Of a stretch of 37,074 bases of DNA, positions 26,683-35,626 are shown one piece after another; positions within the stretch are counted from its first letter, which is position 1, and each line of letters begins with the position of its first letter. The translations under genes were made by a program, and so were the position numbers. The DNA is taken from sequence record NC_003444; one strand, 5' to 3'. Below the pieces are notes generated by a model. That model did no database searches. It was not told the DNA's origin and was given only the letters and a program-made list of their open reading frames with translations. Origin of the DNA: Enterobacteria phage SfV.

Positions 26683-27246
26683 ATGAGGCTAACCGTGGGT
26701 AAGCATCACTGGAAAGTAGAAAAACAGCCTGAGTGGTACGTGAAAGCTGTCAGAAAAACTATCGCGGCGTTGCCGGGGGGTTACGCTGAAGCTGCTGAGT
26801 GGCTGGATGTAACAGAGAACGCTTTATTCAACCGCCTTCGTGCAGATGGCGATCAGATTTTCCCGCTGGGATGGGCAATGATTTTACAGCGCGCGGCTGG
26901 CACTCACTACATTGCGGATGCTGTCGCACAGTCTGCTGGTGGGGTGTTTGTATCGCTTCCTGAAATTGAGGAAGTAGAGAACGCCGATATAAACCAGCGC
27001 CTGCTGGAAGTCATCGAACAGATCGGGAGTTACTCAAAGCAGATTCGTTCGGCAATCGAAGATGGGGTAGTGGAGCCACACGAGCAGACAGCAATTAATG
27101 ATGAGTTGTATCTGTCAATTTCGAAGCTCCAGGAGCATGCAGCACTGGTCTACAAAATCTTTTGCGCTCCAGAAAAGAGTGACGCCCGCGAGTGTGCAGC
27201 TCCGGGCGTCGTGGCGTTTTGTGTCTGTGGAGAAACTAACGCATGA
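26683..27246 (+). CDS. CII-like regulatory protein (phage 186-type CII family, tentative)
   Basis: 187-aa ORF immediately after cro; family assignment from memory only. Confidence 0.5.
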   Translation: MRLTVGKHHWKVEKQPEWYVKAVRKTIAALPGGYAEAAEWLDVTENALFNRLRADGDQIFPLGWAMILQRAAGTHYIADAVAQSAGGVFVSLPEIEEVENADINQRLLEVIEQIGSYSKQIRSAIEDGVVEPHEQTAINDELYLSISKLQEHAALVYKIFCAPEKSDARECAAPGVVAFCVCGETNA

Positions 27247-28079
27247 ACAGTTTAACGGCAAATAACCGTTTGTCGCAACAGCTGGTGGTCAGCGTCGCTG
27301 AACACCTGTTGTTACGGCATGAATGCAGATTACCAAATCACCTGGCTGTAAGTAACCACAGAGAACTTTACCTGACTGTGGGGGGCGAGTTGTGCAGGAA
27401 CTTAACCGCTGGTTTCGTGACGGAAGAGGACTTTATGTTCATGTTATTCGTTGGGAGCCAGAAACACAGCGCGTTATCTATCTTCGCAAAGACTACCCGC
27501 ATGAGTGCTTTAGTCCTTTGTGGAAATTCAGGCGTGATTTTGTTGAGTGTGAAGGACCACCAGCACATTGATTCTGCCATTCCGGGACGTTACACTGTTC
27601 AGGCACCTTATAAAGCGGGTGCCGGGATTGGCGTCCTGGAATTGATCAAGGCGATATATGACGCGCCAGCGTCTTTTTTATCGTCCGCATTTGCTCACAT
27701 CAAAGTTATGGTGGGCTGGGCGGGGGCATCGAAAGATGCGCCGGTTTCCTTGATCACCGGTTACGCCAACCCCGTTCAGTTCACCACCAGCGAAATTGCC
27801 GTTTCCGGTGGTGGAAGTATTTCACCGATCAAGGAGGCTGCCATCATGGCTACTGTCCCAGCCCTCACTCGTCTGAATGATGAAGACTTACATAAACTCA
27901 GTTATGTAACAACTGCACTACGTGCTCTGCGCAAGGTAACTCTTTCGGATCCCCAGGCGCATCAGGTTTTGGTAGAAACCCTTCTTAACTTGCAGGCTGA
28001 ACGTATTCGTCTGGCGGATAAGGCTAATTTTCATATTCACCGTCTCCTGAATATCAGCGGAGGGCATCGTCATGCTTAA
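27243..28079 (+). CDS. hypothetical protein (gene model uncertain)
   Basis: 278-codon ORF with ATGA coupling to the upstream gene; strong internal AAGGAGG-ATG at 27846; alternative-frame GTG ORF 27392..27571. Confidence 0.4.
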   Translation: MNSLTANNRLSQQLVVSVAEHLLLRHECRLPNHLAVSNHRELYLTVGGELCRNLTAGFVTEEDFMFMLFVGSQKHSALSIFAKTTRMSALVLCGNSGVILLSVKDHQHIDSAIPGRYTVQAPYKAGAGIGVLELIKAIYDAPASFLSSAFAHIKVMVGWAGASKDAPVSLITGYANPVQFTTSEIAVSGGGSISPIKEAAIMATVPALTRLNDEDLHKLSYVTTALRALRKVTLSDPQAHQVLVETLLNLQAERIRLADKANFHIHRLLNISGGHRHA

Positions 28080-28308
28080 TCCGTTGAGCCTCAATATTCG
28101 CCGTTTACTTCAGCGTAAAAAAACATCAATTCCTACAGTTGGGCAGTGGTACACCACGCCTGCAGGGCATGTTCTACGTGTTAGCCTGGTTGACCGTGAA
28201 TGTCAGAAAGTGATTTGTGAACCGCTGGGCCGTAATTACCGCGTCAGTATGCCGCTTATAACCTTTCGCTCCGAAAAAAACATGAAGCATCTCGGAGGTG
28301 CAGCATGA
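28072..28308 (+). CDS. hypothetical protein
   Basis: 78-aa ORF overlapping neighbours at both ends; no recognisable motif. Confidence 0.45.
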   Translation: MLNPLSLNIRRLLQRKKTSIPTVGQWYTTPAGHVLRVSLVDRECQKVICEPLGRNYRVSMPLITFRSEKNMKHLGGAA

Positions 28309-29123
28309 GTATGGAGCTGATGGTTAAAGCGATGAAAATTCGAGTGGGTAATCCATTGCGAAAACTGGTTCTGATCAAGCTGGCTGATAATGCCAGCGAT
28401 CAGGGTGAGTGCTGGCCCAGCTATCAGCATATCGCTGATCAGTGCGAGATTAGCAAACGTTCTGTGATGAATCATATTGCGGCCCTCTGTGAGTCCGGGC
28501 TGGTAAAAAAAGTCACCCGGAAAGGTGAAAAAGGTAACTCAAGTAATATCTATCTCCTTCATCTGGATGGTGCAGGAGATTCACTAGGGGGTAGTGCAAA
28601 TAATTCACTATCTGGTGCAGCAAATTCACCAGGTAGTGCAGGAGTTGCACCAGGGGGTAGTGCAGGAGATTCACCCAGAACCAGTCACTCTTTTGAACCA
28701 GTCAAAGAACCAGTCAATGAACCAATAGCTGTTGGTGCATCAGTTGATGAGTCCGTGCGAGTTCGTTCAAACCGACCGGAATACTCTCCGGAGTTTGAGC
28801 AGGCATGGCTGGCATATCCCAAACGTGCTGGTGGCAATTCAAAATCTGCAGCCTTCAAAGCCTGGAAAGCCCGTTTGAACGAGGGAGTAAACCCCGAAAC
28901 CATGCTGGAAGGTGTGAAACGCTACGCGGGCTGGGTATCTGCGATGGGCAATAGCGGCACACAATTTGTGAAACAGGCTGTCACGTTCTTTGGTCCAGAT
29001 CGTCATTTCGAAGAATCCTGGGAAGTTCCTGCGGTATCTGCAGCCAGACGCGAGGACCCGTACTTCAAAGCCAGTTACGACAACGTGGACTACAGCCAGA
29101 TCCCGGCAGGATTCAGGGGGTGA
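28305..29123 (+). CDS. replication initiation protein (lambda O-like, N-terminal HTH)
   Basis: 272 aa; N-terminal HTH replisome-organiser-like region; internal repeat-encoded low-complexity linker (iterons); position after cII. Confidence 0.7.
   Translation: MSMELMVKAMKIRVGNPLRKLVLIKLADNASDQGECWPSYQHIADQCEISKRSVMNHIAALCESGLVKKVTRKGEKGNSSNIYLLHLDGAGDSLGGSANNSLSGAANSPGSAGVAPGGSAGDSPRTSHSFEPVKEPVNEPIAVGASVDESVRVRSNRPEYSPEFEQAWLAYPKRAGGNSKSAAFKAWKARLNEGVNPETMLEGVKRYAGWVSAMGNSGTQFVKQAVTFFGPDRHFEESWEVPAVSAARREDPYFKASYDNVDYSQIPAGFRG
28569..28716. repeat. iteron-like direct repeats inside the replication gene (candidate origin)
   Basis: ggtgcaggagattcac at 28569 and 28660; gggggtagtgca at ~28587 and ~28654; gaaccagtca three times (28678, 28695, 28707). 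Confidence 0.5.
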
Positions 29124-29614
29124 TCATGAGTCTTTTGAATGAAGTTCAGAAATTCATTGAAGCCCATCCGGGGTGTACTTCCGGAGACATTGCGGATGCT
29201 TTTGCAGGTTACTCACGGCAGCGCGTTCTGCAGTCAGCAAGCAAGTTACGTCAGAGTGGGCGTGTGGTTCACCGTTGTGAAGAGGATACACGCAGACATT
29301 TCCCGCGCCTGACTGAGAGAGCGCAGGAGCCGGAACCACAACCAGTTCGTGAAACCAGACCTGTGCGCAATTTCTATGTCGGCACTAACGATCCCCGGGT
29401 GATTTTGTGCCTGACCCGCCAGGCTGAAGAACTGGAGTCAAGGGGCTTATACCGTCGTGCTGCAACGGTGTGGATGGCGGCATTCCGTGAAAGCCACTCC
29501 CAGCAAGAGCGAAACAATTTTCTTGCGCGTCGTGAGCGGTGCTTACGGAAAAGCAGCAAGCGCGCTGCATCGGGTGATGAGTGGTATCTGTCAGGGAATT
29601 ACGTGGGGGCTTAA
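29120..29614 (+). CDS. PerC-like regulator domain protein
   Basis: 164 aa; C-terminal AEELESRGLYRRAATVWMAAF...RRERCL resembles the PerC-family signature from memory. Confidence 0.45.
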   Translation: MIMSLLNEVQKFIEAHPGCTSGDIADAFAGYSRQRVLQSASKLRQSGRVVHRCEEDTRRHFPRLTERAQEPEPQPVRETRPVRNFYVGTNDPRVILCLTRQAEELESRGLYRRAATVWMAAFRESHSQQERNNFLARRERCLRKSSKRAASGDEWYLSGNYVGA

Positions 29615-30267
29615 TGAGTAATAAATATTGCCAGGCGCTGGTGGAACTGCGGAACAAACCAGCCCATGAACTGAAGGAAGTGGGTGATCAGTGGCGCACG
29701 CCGGACAACATTTTCTGGGGAATTAACACCCTGTTTGGCCCGTTTGTTCTGGATCTGTTCACTGACGGTGATAACGCCAAATGTGCCGCGTATTACACGG
29801 CGGAAGACAACGCGCTGGCGCATGACTGGTCAGAACGCCTTGCGGAGCTTAAAGGTGCTGCCTTTGGTAATCCTCCATACAGCCGCGCCAGTCAGCATGA
29901 GGGGCAATACATCACCGGCATGCGTTACATCATGAAACATGCCAGTGCCATGCGTGATAAGGGCGGGCGCTATGTTTTCCTGATCAAAGCTGCCACCAGC
30001 GAAGTGTGGTGGCCGGAAGATGCAGATCATATTGCTTTTATTCGCGGGCGTATTGGTTTTGAACTGCCTGTCTGGTTTATCCCGAAAGACGAGAAGCAGG
30101 TACCGACAGGAGCTTTTTTCGCTGGTGCTATTGCTGTTTTTGACAAGACCTGGAAGGGACCGGCAATCAGCTACATCGGGCGCGATGAACTTGAGGCATG
30201 TGGTGAGGCGTTTCTGGCGCAGGTTCGCCAGCAGGCGGAAAAACTGGTCAGGGAGATGGTGGCATGA
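29614..30267 (+). CDS. phage-type DNA N6-adenine methyltransferase (Dam-like)
   Basis: ORF 29581..30267; ATG 29614 overlaps upstream stop (TAATG); catalytic NPPY motif (FGNPPYS). Confidence 0.8.
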   Translation: MSNKYCQALVELRNKPAHELKEVGDQWRTPDNIFWGINTLFGPFVLDLFTDGDNAKCAAYYTAEDNALAHDWSERLAELKGAAFGNPPYSRASQHEGQYITGMRYIMKHASAMRDKGGRYVFLIKAATSEVWWPEDADHIAFIRGRIGFELPVWFIPKDEKQVPTGAFFAGAIAVFDKTWKGPAISYIGRDELEACGEAFLAQVRQQAEKLVREMVA

Positions 30268-30590
30268 CGACGTTAACTCAATGCCAGCAGCAGGTGCTGG
30301 ATATGCTGATTTCTTATCAGAAAGAACGTGGCTTCCCGCCAACCAATCAGGAGGTGGCAACCATGCTGGGATACCGTTCAGTGAATGCAGCGGTGGAGCA
30401 TCTTCGCGCACTGGAGAAAAAAGGCATCATCACGATAAAGCGTGGCGTGGCCCGGGGGATCACGCTTCATACCGCGGTGAAGGACGACGACAGCGAGGCT
30501 GTCGGGATTATCCGCTCACTGCTTGCCGGTGAGGAAAACGCCAGGCTGCGTGCAACCCACTGGTTACATAAGAGGGGCCTGAAAGTATGA
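30264..30590 (+). CDS. LexA N-terminal DNA-binding-domain protein lacking a peptidase domain
   Basis: 108 aa; residues 4-70 align by eye with the LexA winged-helix DBD; no S24 domain; ATGA-coupled on both sides. Confidence 0.7.
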   Translation: MTTLTQCQQQVLDMLISYQKERGFPPTNQEVATMLGYRSVNAAVEHLRALEKKGIITIKRGVARGITLHTAVKDDDSEAVGIIRSLLAGEENARLRATHWLHKRGLKV

Positions 30591-30976
30591 AGCTGATCCT
30601 GCCTTTCCCGCCCAGCGTGAACACGTACTGGCGACACCCCAACAAAGGGGCGTTTGCAGGTAAGAGCCTAATAAGCGCGGCGGGGCGAAAATTTCAGAGC
30701 GCGGCGTGCGCAGCAATAGTTGAACAGTTACGTCGTCTGCCGAAACCAACGTCGGCACCTGCTTCAGTGGAGATCGTGTTGTTTCCTCCGGATAACAGGA
30801 TCCGCGATCTGGACAACTATAACAAGGCGCTGTTTGACGTTCTGACCCACGCGGGTGTGTGGGAAGACGACAGCCAGGTGAAAAGAATGCTGGTGGAGTG
30901 GGGACCGGTTATCCCGGAAGGGAAGGTCGAGATCACTATCAGTAAGTACGAGAAAACGGCGGGTGCAGCCGCCTGA
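30587..30976 (+). CDS. rusA: Holliday-junction resolvase RusA
   Basis: 129 aa; N-terminus MKLILPFPPSVNTYWRH and conserved acidic residues typical of RusA. Confidence 0.9.
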   Translation: MKLILPFPPSVNTYWRHPNKGAFAGKSLISAAGRKFQSAACAAIVEQLRRLPKPTSAPASVEIVLFPPDNRIRDLDNYNKALFDVLTHAGVWEDDSQVKRMLVEWGPVIPEGKVEITISKYEKTAGAAA

Positions 30977-30995
30977 GCAAGAGGAGAAACGAAGT

Positions 30996-31805
30996 ATGAA
31001 TAATCTGATGGTCATTGATGGTATTGAAGTTCGTCGTGATGCTTATGGGCGTTACAGCCTGAACGATCTGCACAGGGCAGCCGGGGGAGAACAAAAAAAC
31101 CGCCCGAAATACTGGCTCTCCAATAAGCAAACCTGTGAATTGATTGAACAACTTTTCACCGAGGGTGGAATTCCGCCTCTGGAACAAAATCAACCAGTTA
31201 GCGTCATTAATGGCGGAAATAACCAGGGGACGTATGTCTGCAAAGAACTGGTGTATGCCTATGCAATGTGGATCAGCCCGTCATTCCATCTGAAGGTGAT
31301 CCGTACTTTCGATATGGTAACCAGCACACCGGAAAAATTATCCGGGCAGGCTGCTGACAAGATGCAGGCTGGAGTGATTCTGCTGGACTTTATGCGCAGG
31401 GAGTTAAACCTGTCTAACTCTTCAGTGCTTGGGGCCTGTCAGAAACTCCAGGAGGCTGTTGGCTTACCGAATCTGGCACCGCGCTATGCCATTGATGCTC
31501 CTGCTGATGCACACGATGGCTCAAGTCGCCCGACACTGTCACTGAGTGCACTGCTGAAACAGTATGGTATCCGCCTGACGGCTAATCAGGCATATCACCA
31601 GATGGTGAAGCTGGGGATCGTCGAGCAGCGCGAACGATACAGCCGTACCGGGATTAACAACATCAAAAAATTCTGGTCGCTGACGGCGAAAGGCTGCATG
31701 TTCGGCAAGAACATCACCAGTCCCGCAAATCCGCGCGAGACGCAGCCGCATTTCTTCGAATCCCGATTCCCTGAGCTGTTAAAGCTGCTCGATACCGTTC
31801 ATTGA
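30996..31805 (+). CDS. KilA-N domain protein (antirepressor-like)
   Basis: ORF 30963..31805; ATG 30996 after GAGGAG; N-terminal KilA-N-like region. Confidence 0.7.
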   Translation: MNNLMVIDGIEVRRDAYGRYSLNDLHRAAGGEQKNRPKYWLSNKQTCELIEQLFTEGGIPPLEQNQPVSVINGGNNQGTYVCKELVYAYAMWISPSFHLKVIRTFDMVTSTPEKLSGQAADKMQAGVILLDFMRRELNLSNSSVLGACQKLQEAVGLPNLAPRYAIDAPADAHDGSSRPTLSLSALLKQYGIRLTANQAYHQMVKLGIVEQRERYSRTGINNIKKFWSLTAKGCMFGKNITSPANPRETQPHFFESRFPELLKLLDTVH

Positions 31806-31806
31806 G

Positions 31807-32802
31807 GTGACCGTGAGAGCACTACTGACCCCTGAAATTGCCCCGCGTATGGGGATCGTATTGTTCAGGCCAGGTTCAGAGCTGATGCCCCTGTTTATGC
31901 AGGGGCGTGTCCTGCTGGAGCCTGAGCCAGAACGTTATTCATCTTTCGCCAGTGGTGCCGTTCCGGCGGCATCACAACCGCTGGCGGATGATCCTGCCGT
32001 TCGGGCCGTGTTCCGCAATGAGGCAGTGATCCGTCGTGCTGGTGGCGTGGAATGTCTTGAAAGCTGGTTACTTCGTGAAAAAGGCTGCCAGTGGCCTCAT
32101 TCCGACTGGCACAGCGAGAACATGACCACAATGCGACACGCTCCGGGCGCAATCCGTCTGTGCTGGCACTGCGATAACCAGCTGCGCGATCAGTTCACGG
32201 AACGGCTGGAATCAATGGCAACGGATAACTGTGCCCGCTGGGTGTTGTCTGTAGTCCGTCGGGATCTCGGTTTTGATGATAACCATGCCGTGACAATGCC
32301 GGAACTGTGCTGGTGGCTGATTCGTAATGACCTCGCGGATGCCTTACCTGAAAGCGCAGCCCGTAAGGCGCTGAGATTACCGAAACCTGTTGTGCCGTCT
32401 GTCACCCGGGAAAGTGACCTTGTGCCTTCGGTTCCTGCCACCAGCATCATCCAGGATAAAGCGAAAAAGGTGCTGGCGCTGAAAGTGGATCCGGAGTCGC
32501 CGGAGTCTTTTATGTTACGCCCAAAACGCCGCCGCTGGGTTAATGAAAAGTACACGCGCTGGGTTAAGACACAGCCGTGTGCATGTTGTGGAAAGCCTGC
32601 TGATGATCCCCACCACCTGATAGGCCACGGTCAGGGTGGAATGGGTACAAAAGCGCATGACCTCTTTGTGTTGCCTTTGTGCAGAAAGCATCACGACGAG
32701 CTGCATGCGGATACCGTGGCATTTGAAGAGAAGTATGGCTCTCAGCTGGAGCTGATATTTCGTTTTATCGATCGTGCGCTGGCAATTGGCGTATTGGCGT
32801 AA
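31807..32802 (+). CDS. Cys/His-rich nin-region protein (DUF968-like)
   Basis: 331-aa ORF (start uncertain, GTG 31807); C-terminal CACCGKPADDPHHLIGHG...CRKHHDELH metal-binding-like motif. Confidence 0.5.
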   Translation: MTVRALLTPEIAPRMGIVLFRPGSELMPLFMQGRVLLEPEPERYSSFASGAVPAASQPLADDPAVRAVFRNEAVIRRAGGVECLESWLLREKGCQWPHSDWHSENMTTMRHAPGAIRLCWHCDNQLRDQFTERLESMATDNCARWVLSVVRRDLGFDDNHAVTMPELCWWLIRNDLADALPESAARKALRLPKPVVPSVTRESDLVPSVPATSIIQDKAKKVLALKVDPESPESFMLRPKRRRWVNEKYTRWVKTQPCACCGKPADDPHHLIGHGQGGMGTKAHDLFVLPLCRKHHDELHADTVAFEEKYGSQLELIFRFIDRALAIGVLA

Positions 32803-32815
32803 GTGGAGAACGAGC

Positions 32816-33568
32816 ATGAACCTTGAAGCCTTACCAAAATATTACTCCCCAAAATCTCCAAAATTGAGCGATGACGCACCGGCGACAGGCTCAGGTGGTT
32901 TAACGATTACGGATGTGATGGCTGCGCAGGGGATGGTGCAGTCGAAAGCACCGCTTGGGTTTGCCTTATTCCTGGCAAAAGTTGGTGTTCAGGATCCTCA
33001 ATTTGCGATTGAAGGTCTGCTCAATTACGCGATGGCACTGGATAACCCGACATTGAACAAATTGAGTGAAGAAACCCGGTTACAGATCATCCCTTACCTT
33101 GTGAATTTTGCCTTTGCTGATTATTCCAGGTCTGCGGCAAGTAAGGCTCGCTGTGAGCATTGTGCTGGTACTGGATTTCATAATGTATTGCGCGAAGTGG
33201 TGAAACACTCCAGAAGCGGGGAATCTGTTATCAAGGAAGAGTGGGTGAAGGAACTATGTCAGCATTGTCATGGTAAGGGAGAAGTCAGCACAGCGTGCAG
33301 AGGGTGTAAGGGTAAAGGTATTGTCCTGGATGAAAAAAGGACCCGGCTTCATGGCACACCTGTTTATAAGATTTGTGGGCGTTGCAATGGAAACCGGTTT
33401 AGCCGTTTACCAACCACACTGGCGCGGCATCATGTCCAGAAGCTGGTACCAGACCTGACAGATTATCAGTGGTACAAAGGATATGCAGATGTCATTGATA
33501 AACTGGTTACAAAGTGCTGGCAGGAAGAAGCATATGCTGAGGCGCAATTAAGAAAAGTGACGAGATAA
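32816..33568 (+). CDS. late-gene antiterminator Q (zinc-finger type)
   Basis: ORF 32774..33568; ATG 32816 after GGAG; four CxxCxG motifs; immediately upstream of the late promoter and lysis genes. Confidence 0.75.
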   Translation: MNLEALPKYYSPKSPKLSDDAPATGSGGLTITDVMAAQGMVQSKAPLGFALFLAKVGVQDPQFAIEGLLNYAMALDNPTLNKLSEETRLQIIPYLVNFAFADYSRSAASKARCEHCAGTGFHNVLREVVKHSRSGESVIKEEWVKELCQHCHGKGEVSTACRGCKGKGIVLDEKRTRLHGTPVYKICGRCNGNRFSRLPTTLARHHVQKLVPDLTDYQWYKGYADVIDKLVTKCWQEEAYAEAQLRKVTR

Positions 33569-33675: not shown

Positions 33676-33699
33676 ACCCGCCGCTGAGCGGGTTTTTTT
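33676..33699 (+). terminator. tR'-like rho-independent terminator
   Basis: Stem cccgc/gcggg with loop cgctga followed by T7 (33693-33699); ~60 nt downstream of the putative pR' start. Confidence 0.55.
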
Positions 33700-33817
33700 G
33701 TGCCTTGATGTTGGCAGTACGGTAAACACGCTGGTGGTCGTGAATACTGACTTTTTATCTTGCTGGCTTTTTAGACAAGAGTTATTGGTATGTCATGTTA
33801 ACCAGAAGGAAAAAGGC

Positions 33818-34012
33818 ATGCTAAAACAGCAAGATATGACAGAAACGGCGAAAGTTGTTTTTAATGAATTAAGCATCGAACCGGCAACAGTCGGGGAGAT
33901 TGCACAAAACACATATCTTTCACGCGAACGCTGTCAGTTAATACTGACCCAGTTGGTTATGGCGGGGCTGGCAGATTACCAGTTCGGCTGTTACAGACGC
34001 CTTCAGCAATGA
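33818..34012 (+). CDS. small putative DNA-binding protein (64 aa)
   Basis: ORF 33698..34012; ATG 33818 after AAGGAAAAAGG; first gene after tR'. Confidence 0.45.
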   Translation: MLKQQDMTETAKVVFNELSIEPATVGEIAQNTYLSRERCQLILTQLVMAGLADYQFGCYRRLQQ

Positions 34013-34161
34013 AGGACTTTTAATTTGTGAAAATGGGCGGCTGGTGGGTGTTGGTAGCACCTGCCAGCCATTCGCTCATGCTTACTGGTCACAAGCGAAC
34101 CACGGCCCACTGCTTTAGCGCAAAAGCAGAGTGAGCCTACCAGAGTTACGCTTACTGATCC

Positions 34162-35214
34162 ATGAAAAATACTGTAAAAATAAACAGTGTTGATTTAATC
34201 AACGCTGATTGCCTGCATTTTATTCAGTCCCTGCCTGATGATTCCATTGACCTGATTGTTACCGATCCGCCGTACTTCAAGGTGAAACCCAACGGTTGGG
34301 ACAATCAGTGGAAAGGGGACGAAGATTACCTTAAGTGGCTGGATCACTGTCTGGCCCAGTTCTGGCGGGTGTTGAAACCTGCCGGAAGCCTTTACCTGTT
34401 CTGTGGACATCGCCTGGCATCTGATATTGAGATCATGATGCGTGAACGTTTCAACGTGCTTAACCATATCATCTGGGCGAAGCCGTCCGGACGTTGGAAT
34501 GGGTGTAATAAAGAAAGTCTGCGTGCATATTTTCCTGCCACAGAGCGCGTTCTGTTTGCTGAACATTACCAGGGGCCATATCGTGGCAAAAGTGACGGCT
34601 ATGCGGCAAAAGAAAGGGAACTCAAACAGCACATAATGGCACCGCTGATATCGTATTTCAGGAATGCTCGTGCCGAACTGGGTATAACGGCAAAACAAAT
34701 TGCCGAAGCCACAGGTAAGAAAAATATGGTTTCCCACTGGTTTGGTGCCAGTCAGTGGCAGTTGCCGAATGAGGCTGACTACCGGAAGTTACAGGCACTG
34801 TTTTCCCGTATAGCGGCAGAGAAGTTTCAGGAACAGCAACTGGAACAACCACACCACCAGCTGGTGGCATCTTATGATTCACTGAATCGCAAATATTCTG
34901 AATTGCTGGATGAGTTTAAATCACTCCGGCGCTATTTCTCCGTATCAGTCTCCGTGCCTTATACCGATGTCTGGACGCATAAGCCCGTTCAGTTCTATCC
35001 GGGTAAACATCCGTGCGAGAAACCGGCGGATATGCTCCGGCAAATAATCAATGCCAGTAGTCGACCAGGCGATCTGGTTGCTGATTTCTTTATGGGATCC
35101 GGTTCCACAATAAAAGCGGCAATGGCGCTGGGGCGTCAGGCGTTAGGTGTTGAACTTGAGTCAGAGCGGTTTAATCAGATGGTGAAAGAGGTAAGTGAAC
35201 TGGTGGGGAAATAA
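34162..35214 (+). CDS. orphan DNA methyltransferase (beta-class N6A/N4C amino-MTase)
   Basis: 350 aa; motif IV DPPY near N-terminus (LIVTDPPYF) and SAM-binding motif I near C-terminus (DLVADFFMGSGST); no adjacent endonuclease. Confidence 0.85.
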   Translation: MKNTVKINSVDLINADCLHFIQSLPDDSIDLIVTDPPYFKVKPNGWDNQWKGDEDYLKWLDHCLAQFWRVLKPAGSLYLFCGHRLASDIEIMMRERFNVLNHIIWAKPSGRWNGCNKESLRAYFPATERVLFAEHYQGPYRGKSDGYAAKERELKQHIMAPLISYFRNARAELGITAKQIAEATGKKNMVSHWFGASQWQLPNEADYRKLQALFSRIAAEKFQEQQLEQPHHQLVASYDSLNRKYSELLDEFKSLRRYFSVSVSVPYTDVWTHKPVQFYPGKHPCEKPADMLRQIINASSRPGDLVADFFMGSGSTIKAAMALGRQALGVELESERFNQMVKEVSELVGK

Positions 35215-35290
35215 TTCTGGTGGCCACGTTGCGTGGCCTTTTTATTTCCAACACAGCACCCGCAAATATCGCGAGGTGAGAGATGACGAA

Positions 35291-35626
35291 ATGCCTCATA
35301 ACCCAAATACATGGCCGGACTGGCTGGAGTTGTTTCAGAGCTGGTGGCGTGGAGACACACCGCTTGGTGCAGTGATTATGTCGATCGTTATGGCTGGTTT
35401 GCGCATCGCCTATTTTGGCGGTGGTGGTGGCTGGAAGCGAAAAACGCTCGAGATTTTGCTATGTGGCGCTCTGACGCTGACCTTTGCATCCGCTCTTGAG
35501 TATGTCGGATGGCCTAAATCGCTTTCTGTTGCCATTGGTGGTGGCGTGGGGCTGATCGGTGTCGATGCTATTCGTGGGGCTGCAATGCGAGTAATCGGTA
35601 ACAAATTTGGTAGCTCGAAGGAGTAA
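35291..35626 (+). CDS. holin (lambda S-like, three TM segments)
   Basis: ORF 35195..35626; ATG 35291; three hydrophobic segments and charged C-terminus; immediately upstream of the endolysin. Confidence 0.7.
   Translation: MPHNPNTWPDWLELFQSWWRGDTPLGAVIMSIVMAGLRIAYFGGGGGWKRKTLEILLCGALTLTFASALEYVGWPKSLSVAIGGGVGLIGVDAIRGAAMRVIGNKFGSSKE

Follow-up and report, generated by a model that had tools for sequence, protein, structure and literature searches.

The gene at positions 29614-30267 of phage SfV (positions refer to the window, the whole 37,074-nt stretch of DNA that was analyzed) encodes a confirmed member of the phage N-6-adenine-methyltransferase family (PF05869/TIGR01712). The interpretation preferred here, with moderate confidence and on the basis of homology, is that this protein is an active orphan GATC-specific N6-adenine methyltransferase of an SfV/Chi-like clade that would top up the host Dam on replicating phage DNA. 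Together with the unrelated enzyme encoded at 34162-35214, SfV would have an early, probably site-specific methyltransferase and a late, probably non-specific one, an arrangement that can be tested.

The early methyltransferase gene and its product

The SfV protein matches the Pfam profile PF05869 (Dam) with E=9.7e-46 and 156 bits over profile positions 3-167 of 169 (curated cut-off, 28.1 bits) and the NCBIfam profile TIGR01712 (“phage N-6-adenine-methyltransferase”) with 256.5 bits over positions 1-165 of 165 (curated cut-off, 97.05 bits). These matches agree with the sequence-only reading, which had described the product of this gene as a Dam-like amino-methyltransferase with an NPPY motif; “Dam-like” is here the name of the family and not a statement of specificity. 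In the alignment of 72 diverse homologs, residues Asn86, Pro87, and Tyr89 of this motif are invariant and Pro88 is at least 90% conserved. The other invariant residues are Asp25, Trp27, Asp47, Asn54, Trp72, Trp132, and Arg146, and all ten are found in the SfV protein. The motif I-like segment VLDLFTDG precedes NPPY, as in a gamma-like motif order; we infer that it represents motif I, an assignment also backed by a profile search in which “VMDL...FANPPYS” of the PacII M subunit aligned weakly.

The AlphaFold2 model built from the 72-homolog alignment has a pLDDT of 92.8 and a pTM of 0.88, and the protein is confidently predicted to adopt the class I AdoMet-dependent (Rossmann) methyltransferase fold of the N6-adenine type. 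Structures listed with this predicted model include PCIF1 (11.0), MmeI (10.0), E. coli Dam (9.9), M.TaqI (9.9), T4 Dam (8.9), DpnM (8.8), and the type I HsdM subunits (about 8). The SfV protein contains no separate target-recognition domain. It has no Pfam match to PF02086 and therefore falls outside the alpha-class Dam family. A search of PDB sequences with the SfV protein returned no match at E<=1, and the best E-value obtained in PDB with the profile of the 72 homologs was 0.56, so that the PF05869 family is without a solved structure.

The 217-codon reading frame runs on the + strand from the ATG at 29614 to the TGA at 30265-30267 and is identical over its full length in phage SfII. Its ATG has one base in common with the TAA of the upstream open reading frame (ORF), in the arrangement TAATG, and its TGA is overlapped by the ATG of the downstream ORF (ATGA). 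The run of five G residues upstream of the gene (Table 1) lies at Shine-Dalgarno spacing from the start codon. A longer version starting at GTG 29581 is unsupported, since the homolog clusters, with hundreds to thousands of members, consist of 217-aa proteins and the PADLOC methyltransferase model of 217 positions aligns end to end with residues 1-217. Two ORFs that overlap the gene, 29830-30411 on the - strand and 30020-30532 on the + strand, were set aside because the strong family match sits in the methyltransferase frame.

A recurrent allele with six instead of five G residues at 29605-29609 is found in E. coli assemblies (loci L008-L010, around positions 1985-1991). The additional G brings the PerC-like ORF in frame with the methyltransferase, producing a 382-aa PerC-Dam fusion protein (P0134) that the contig collection lists in 28 blocks, from which 24 contigs were read. 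Alleles with separate PerC-like and methyltransferase genes far outnumber the fusion allele. A nearby A-to-T change linked to the six-G allele indicates that this is a real lineage and not a random sequencing error.

Genomic context and distribution

The eleven ORFs between 26683 and 33568 abut or overlap each other without intergenic gaps (Table 1), and no terminator-like sites were detected on the + strand between 27674 and 32490. Scans of the flanking ORFs against Pfam, PHROGs, and PADLOC revealed no restriction endonuclease or specificity subunit next to the methyltransferase gene: its neighbors are the PerC-like, LexA-domain, RusA, KilA-N, DUF968/HNH, and Q genes, and PADLOC reported methyltransferase models alone, with no restriction partner. 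The 29614-30267 product is therefore an orphan methyltransferase. The sequence-only reading had placed an orphan gene in the replication/nin region and had paired it with a second, unrelated methyltransferase gene at 34162-35214, the former expressed early and the latter late. This description holds wherever it could be checked: the first gene has the nin-type, delayed-early location described, within the unbroken early block between the replication gene and Q, and the second, a PF01555 member that differs in both family and motif order, would be late by gene order, as it follows Q and precedes the holin gene. The DUF968/HNH protein, a putative nuclease, is encoded 1.5 kb from the methyltransferase, and phages mEp460 and 1720a-02 carry its equivalent at the same place, between KilA-N and Q.

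Table 1. Features of the SfV early block and of the late methyltransferase region
Feature	Positions	Strand	Remarks
cII-like (CP76)	26683-27246		Block ORF
Ash-family, 278 aa	27243-28079		Block ORF
Small ORF	28072-28308		Block ORF
Replication initiator-like (HTH_36/DnaD_N)	28305-29123	+	Start of replication/nin block
PerC-family/winged-helix regulator (yfdN-like)	29120-29614	+	Stop overlaps methyltransferase start
Run of five G residues, likely ribosome-binding site of methyltransferase	29605-29609	+	5-9 nt upstream of ATG
Dam-family DNA N6-adenine methyltransferase CDS, 217 aa	29614-30267	+	Identical to SfV AAL89443.1
VLDLFTDG (residues 44-51), putative AdoMet-binding motif I-like strand and loop	29743-29766	+	Asp47 invariant; model strand 44-48
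Catalytic motif IV NPPY (residues 86-89)	29869-29880	+	AAT CCT CCA TAC, read from sequence
Clade-specific insertion after NPPYS (about residues 91-102), predicted beta-hairpin	29884-29919	+	Alignments; model strands 93-95, 98-101
Small LexA-type DNA-binding-domain protein	30264-30590	+	Start overlaps methyltransferase stop
RusA	30587-30976		Block ORF
KilA-N protein	30963-31805		Block ORF
DUF968/HNH	31807-32802		Block ORF
Q antiterminator	32774-33568	+	Boundary of early block and late region; PF03589, E=1.3e-53
Second orphan methyltransferase, beta-class, 350 aa	34162-35214	+	PF01555, E=1.8e-42; identical to SfV AAL89450.1
GC-rich hairpin with T-run, terminator-like (GGCCACG-TTG-CGTGGCC)	35222-35238	+	Consensus match only

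Several other sequence elements were seen in the same part of the genome. The replication-initiator gene contains iteron-like direct repeats at 28570-28716, namely three ~39-nt units (“GTGCAGGAGATTCAC...”) and three copies of “AGAACCAGTCA”; these are likely to mark the origin of the phage. Upstream of the replication gene, the ORF for the Ash-family protein includes Rfam matches to the Hfq-binding RNA isrK (64 bits, 27603-27679, + strand) and to the C4 antisense RNA (82 bits, 27704-27791, + strand), both above the gathering score, as well as a terminator-like hairpin at 27660-27673 on the + strand. This region looks like an RNA-controlled antirepressor or immunity module of the P1/Gifsy type, and it may gate transcription into the block that carries the methyltransferase gene. 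In the whole window, the tetranucleotide CTAG is very rare (6 sites, whereas base composition predicts 144; 0.43 of the Markov expectation), and GGCC occurs at about half of its expectation.

The early methyltransferase gene is widespread. Sequences with at least 95% nucleotide identity to it are present in 2120 of the 5426 complete E. coli genomes (about 39%), with up to four copies in a single genome; in 1725 of the 5426, the match covers at least 80% of the gene, and in the other 395 of the 2120 it falls short of that coverage. The protein belongs to a 90% identity cluster of 3007 members, and tblastn detected its relatives in 586 phage records. The nin block of SfV is shared at 97-98% identity with mEp460, 1720a-02, and many Stx2a and Stx2c phages, and the structural half of the genome is 97-98% identical to those of SfII, SfIV, and SfI. 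Both methyltransferase genes are found together in mEp460, 1720a-02, the Stx2c series, Stx2a_1447, PhiR40_1, and Hafnia phage yong2. A pair of methyltransferases in a 37-kb genome is thus nothing peculiar to SfV: lambdoid phages frequently combine these mosaic modules.

Phage SfV was sequenced in 2002, and the gene at 29614-30267 is already annotated in its record; it is real but ordinary. The mEp460 record cites the SfV proteins NP_599070 to NP_599078 for the same block, with NP_599073.1 given as “DNA adenine ...” for the methyltransferase. In RefSeq, members of this family in mEp460, Chi, SPN19, and other phages bear the label “phosphoadenosine phosphosulfate reductase”; the loci noted for this are 29614-30267 of the window, 3615-4268 of L001, and 3004-3690 of L006. 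The likely source of this name is phrog_33262, a profile of 495 positions that carries the reductase name and in which the methyltransferase match is confined to the C-terminal half (positions 283-492). Apparently, this PHROG consists of fusion proteins and its name was handed on to stand-alone methyltransferases; this naming of Dam-family members is an annotation error worth mending.

Target specificity and possible role

In the alignment made for this analysis, PF05869 splits in two. Members of the SfV/Chi-like clade are 38-88% identical to the SfV protein and have in common the segments DQWRTPD and KxATSExWWP, a long loop at residues 149-167, a C-terminal helix at residues 190-216 (as seen in the alignment and in the model), and some ten extra residues following NPPYS, which the GATC enzymes of VT2, HP1, T1, and Phi93 lack. 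The T1/HP1/VT2 group is 20-25% identical to the SfV clade and lacks these features, displaying instead a conserved “ETG...NNKG” loop. Many SfV-clade homologs are longer, at 285-327 aa, because variable stretches of 70-110 residues extend them beyond the C-terminal helix; examples are P0048, P0050, and P0319, with Cronobacter, Yersinia, and assembly contigs among the sources. No Pfam domains were annotated in these extensions.

Phage T1 Dam is GATC-specific. The enzyme of phage Phi93, M.Phi93DAM, was identified as a GATC m6A methyltransferase by SMRT sequencing and DpnI/DpnII digestion, and it shields phage DNA from DpnII (PMC4190342). The VT-2 and HP1 enzymes are cited as Dam-like, i.e., acting on GATC (PMC7556043). 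With these four enzymes, the SfV protein shares only 23-32% identity, and the literature search found no published specificity for members of the SfV/Chi clade; mentions of PF05869 in the full texts searched were confined to methods sections. The hairpin after NPPYS, the 149-167 loop, and the C-terminal helix of this clade could make its target recognition different from that of the GATC enzymes. Nevertheless, M.Phi93DAM, with 140 aa, is reduced almost to the shared core, which suggests that it is the core that carries GATC recognition; as the SfV protein keeps this core, GATC is rated as its likeliest target, a best guess with a better than even chance of being right. The GATC statistics of the SfV genome (given below) lend this assignment no backing of their own and were counted against it. 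For the very common SfV/Chi-type clade, “GATC” in annotations and in motif-prediction pipelines is an assumption.

Two groups of enzymes that could have informed this assignment were rejected as relatives. PhiLM21_p027, a 215-aa protein with NPPY and GANTC specificity, was considered as a PF05869 enzyme with switched specificity, but it matches nothing in Pfam and is not similar to the SfV protein. The non-specific methyltransferases Hia5 and Hin1523 are described as Dam-related, with FxGxG and a DPPY motif near residue 194, and they were set apart as a different family by that description only (PMC3299994).

In the preferred interpretation, the gene would be cotranscribed with the replication genes upon induction or infection, as its position suggests, and translated by coupling to the neighboring genes. 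The enzyme would methylate GATC adenines in the replicating phage DNA and also, as a side effect, in the host DNA, adding to a host Dam activity that may be limiting: in phage lambda, about 50% of the DNA is methylated by the host Dam (PMC3299994). Fully GATC-methylated progeny DNA would resist DpnII/MboI-type restriction in new hosts and would offer no target to MutH. Broad cover against other adenine-sensitive restriction enzymes would most likely come later and separately, from the M.EcoGII-type enzyme encoded just after Q (see below). A GATC enzyme is partly redundant in a Dam+ host. Pressure from restriction systems is a plausible selective explanation for the two methyltransferases.

A different target is rather unlikely but deserves to be weighed against GATC. 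The protein could be an active orphan m6A enzyme that recognizes another short motif or has relaxed specificity, and that gives the phage its own early anti-restriction cover instead of mimicking Dam. Such a target would be in line with the low identity of the clade to the T1/HP1/VT2 group and of the SfV protein to the Phi93 enzyme (32%), with the position of the clade hairpin beside the catalytic loop and the differing loop at 149-167, and with the genome statistics, in which no sign of a GATC function is seen. On the other side are the four PF05869 members of tested specificity that were compared, all of them GATC enzymes although they come from three divergent subgroups and from phages of both Gram-negative and Gram-positive hosts (PMC4190342, PMC7556043). 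The Phi93 enzyme shows that the core retained in SfV suffices for GATC, and the candidate counterexample, PhiLM21_p027, lies outside PF05869. In a related and likewise doubtful scenario, to which a slightly lower probability is assigned, the SfV/Chi clade is a functionally distinct subfamily, either with a non-GATC target or with a role in early site-specific “marking” alongside the late M.EcoGII-type enzyme. If that were true, many lambdoid phages would have a temporal two-step methylation program.

Two further readings are less probable than these. An active enzyme, for GATC or another site, might be mainly regulatory, timing replication, packaging, or lysogeny through methylation of phage sites, much as Dam methylation acts at the pac site of phage P1. 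The gene is located in the replication block and overlaps those for two putative DNA-binding regulators, the PerC-like and LexA-domain proteins, with the former of which it is fused in the six-G allele, and small NPPY methyltransferases recur beside phage replication genes (PMC5537653). This reading is nonetheless judged improbable, as no methylation-sensitive site was found and the distribution of GATC gives it no help. The SfV genome has 145 GATC sites, 1.01 times the number expected from base composition; their clusters do not exceed chance (5 versus 4.4 +/- 2.2), and the iteron-like repeats of the putative origin, within the replication gene, are free of GATC. The ordinary frequency, the chance-level clustering, and the GATC-free iterons provide no sequence pointer to a GATC-dependent control site. 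It is very hard to believe that SfV has here no functional DNA methyltransferase at all, i.e., that the protein is an inactive relic or acts on RNA or protein. Truncated copies do occur in many E. coli genomes (the 395 of 2120 below 80% coverage), but every family-invariant residue is intact in SfV, the frame is full-length and is the same in SfII, and in vivo DNA methylation is on record for relatives within PF05869 (PMC4190342). That the gene stays intact in many E. coli genomes was also counted in favor of an active enzyme.

The late methyltransferase and comparison with known enzymes

The product of 34162-35214, named “DNA methyltransferase [Enterobacteria phage SfV]” in the AAL89450.1 record, has DPPY before FxGxG, with TDPPYF near the N terminus and FMGSGST near the C terminus. 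Over its full length, it shares 280 of 349 residues (80%) with M.EcoGII, a slight underestimate because the M.EcoGII sequence was machine-read from Supplementary Table S1 of PMC11551740. This protein is probably a non-specific adenine methyltransferase of the M.EcoGII type, a likeness that the sequence-only reading had missed. According to PMC5778455, M.EcoGII methylates adenines irrespective of their context, stays silent in the lysogen, and has a close relative in phage 1720a-02; the 1720a-02 methyltransferase is 81% identical to the SfV protein. Another relative, with 64% identity, is the protein of Serratia phage OS31, for which protection assays indicated relaxed specificity (PMC7556043). 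The late enzyme probably serves as the broad anti-restriction device.

The late gene lies between Q and the holin gene (PF05106). The strong terminator-like hairpin at 35222-35238 comes directly after it and overlaps the first part of the longest holin ORF (35195-35626); the actual start of the holin is probably located beyond the hairpin. Between Q and the late methyltransferase gene is a + strand ORF for a 104-aa protein (33698-34012) that matches phrog_331, a PHROG with no assigned function, at E=4e-42 and has no match in Pfam; a weak terminator-like site (34000-34015) is found at its end.

Like the late SfV protein, M.EcoGII combines an N-terminal DPPY with a C-terminal FMGSGST, and it is carried by a prophage. 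The OS31 gene directly precedes the lysis cassette (PMC7556043), and the SfV gene is likewise located ahead of the lysis genes. The early, Dam-family protein of SfV has no sequence similarity to the M.EcoGII family.

The early protein also differs from the alpha-class (PF02086) Dam enzymes of E. coli and phage T4, which represent another family with another motif order, are 8-9% identical to it in structural alignment, and have a helical target-recognition domain, whereas the SfV protein has no separate one. Within PF05869, the Dam of the virulent phage T1 (237 aa; 236 bits) has the same core motifs and is 23-25% identical to the SfV protein, but it is extended at the N terminus and has a large insert ahead of GRLxF. 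M.Phi93DAM of the lactococcal 936-type phage Phi93 (117.5 bits) is 32% identical to the SfV protein over core residues 25-149 and shares with it the segments “NAKC”, “T.E.N.L.QDW”, and “GR.xF”. It is a minimal enzyme that, unlike the SfV protein, has no hairpin insertion, long loop, or C-terminal helix, and its gene belongs to the packaging module of a virulent phage of Gram-positive bacteria. M.EcoVT2Dam (VT2-Sakai orf32, 175 aa; PF05869 at 218 bits) and HP1 Dam (173 aa; 251 bits) are, respectively, 27% and 25% identical to the SfV protein. Their reported target is GATC, whereas that of the SfV protein is predicted from homology; neither has the C-terminal helix or the hairpin that follows NPPYS in SfV, and they possess, after GRIxF, the conserved “ETG...NNKG” loop that is missing from the SfV protein. 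Common to all three are the NPPYS form of motif IV and the N-terminal D-x-W-x-TP and L-D motifs. Just as in SfV, the genes for M.EcoVT2Dam and HP1 Dam are orphans; they sit in early/nin or replication regions, and their phages are temperate and infect Dam+ gammaproteobacteria.
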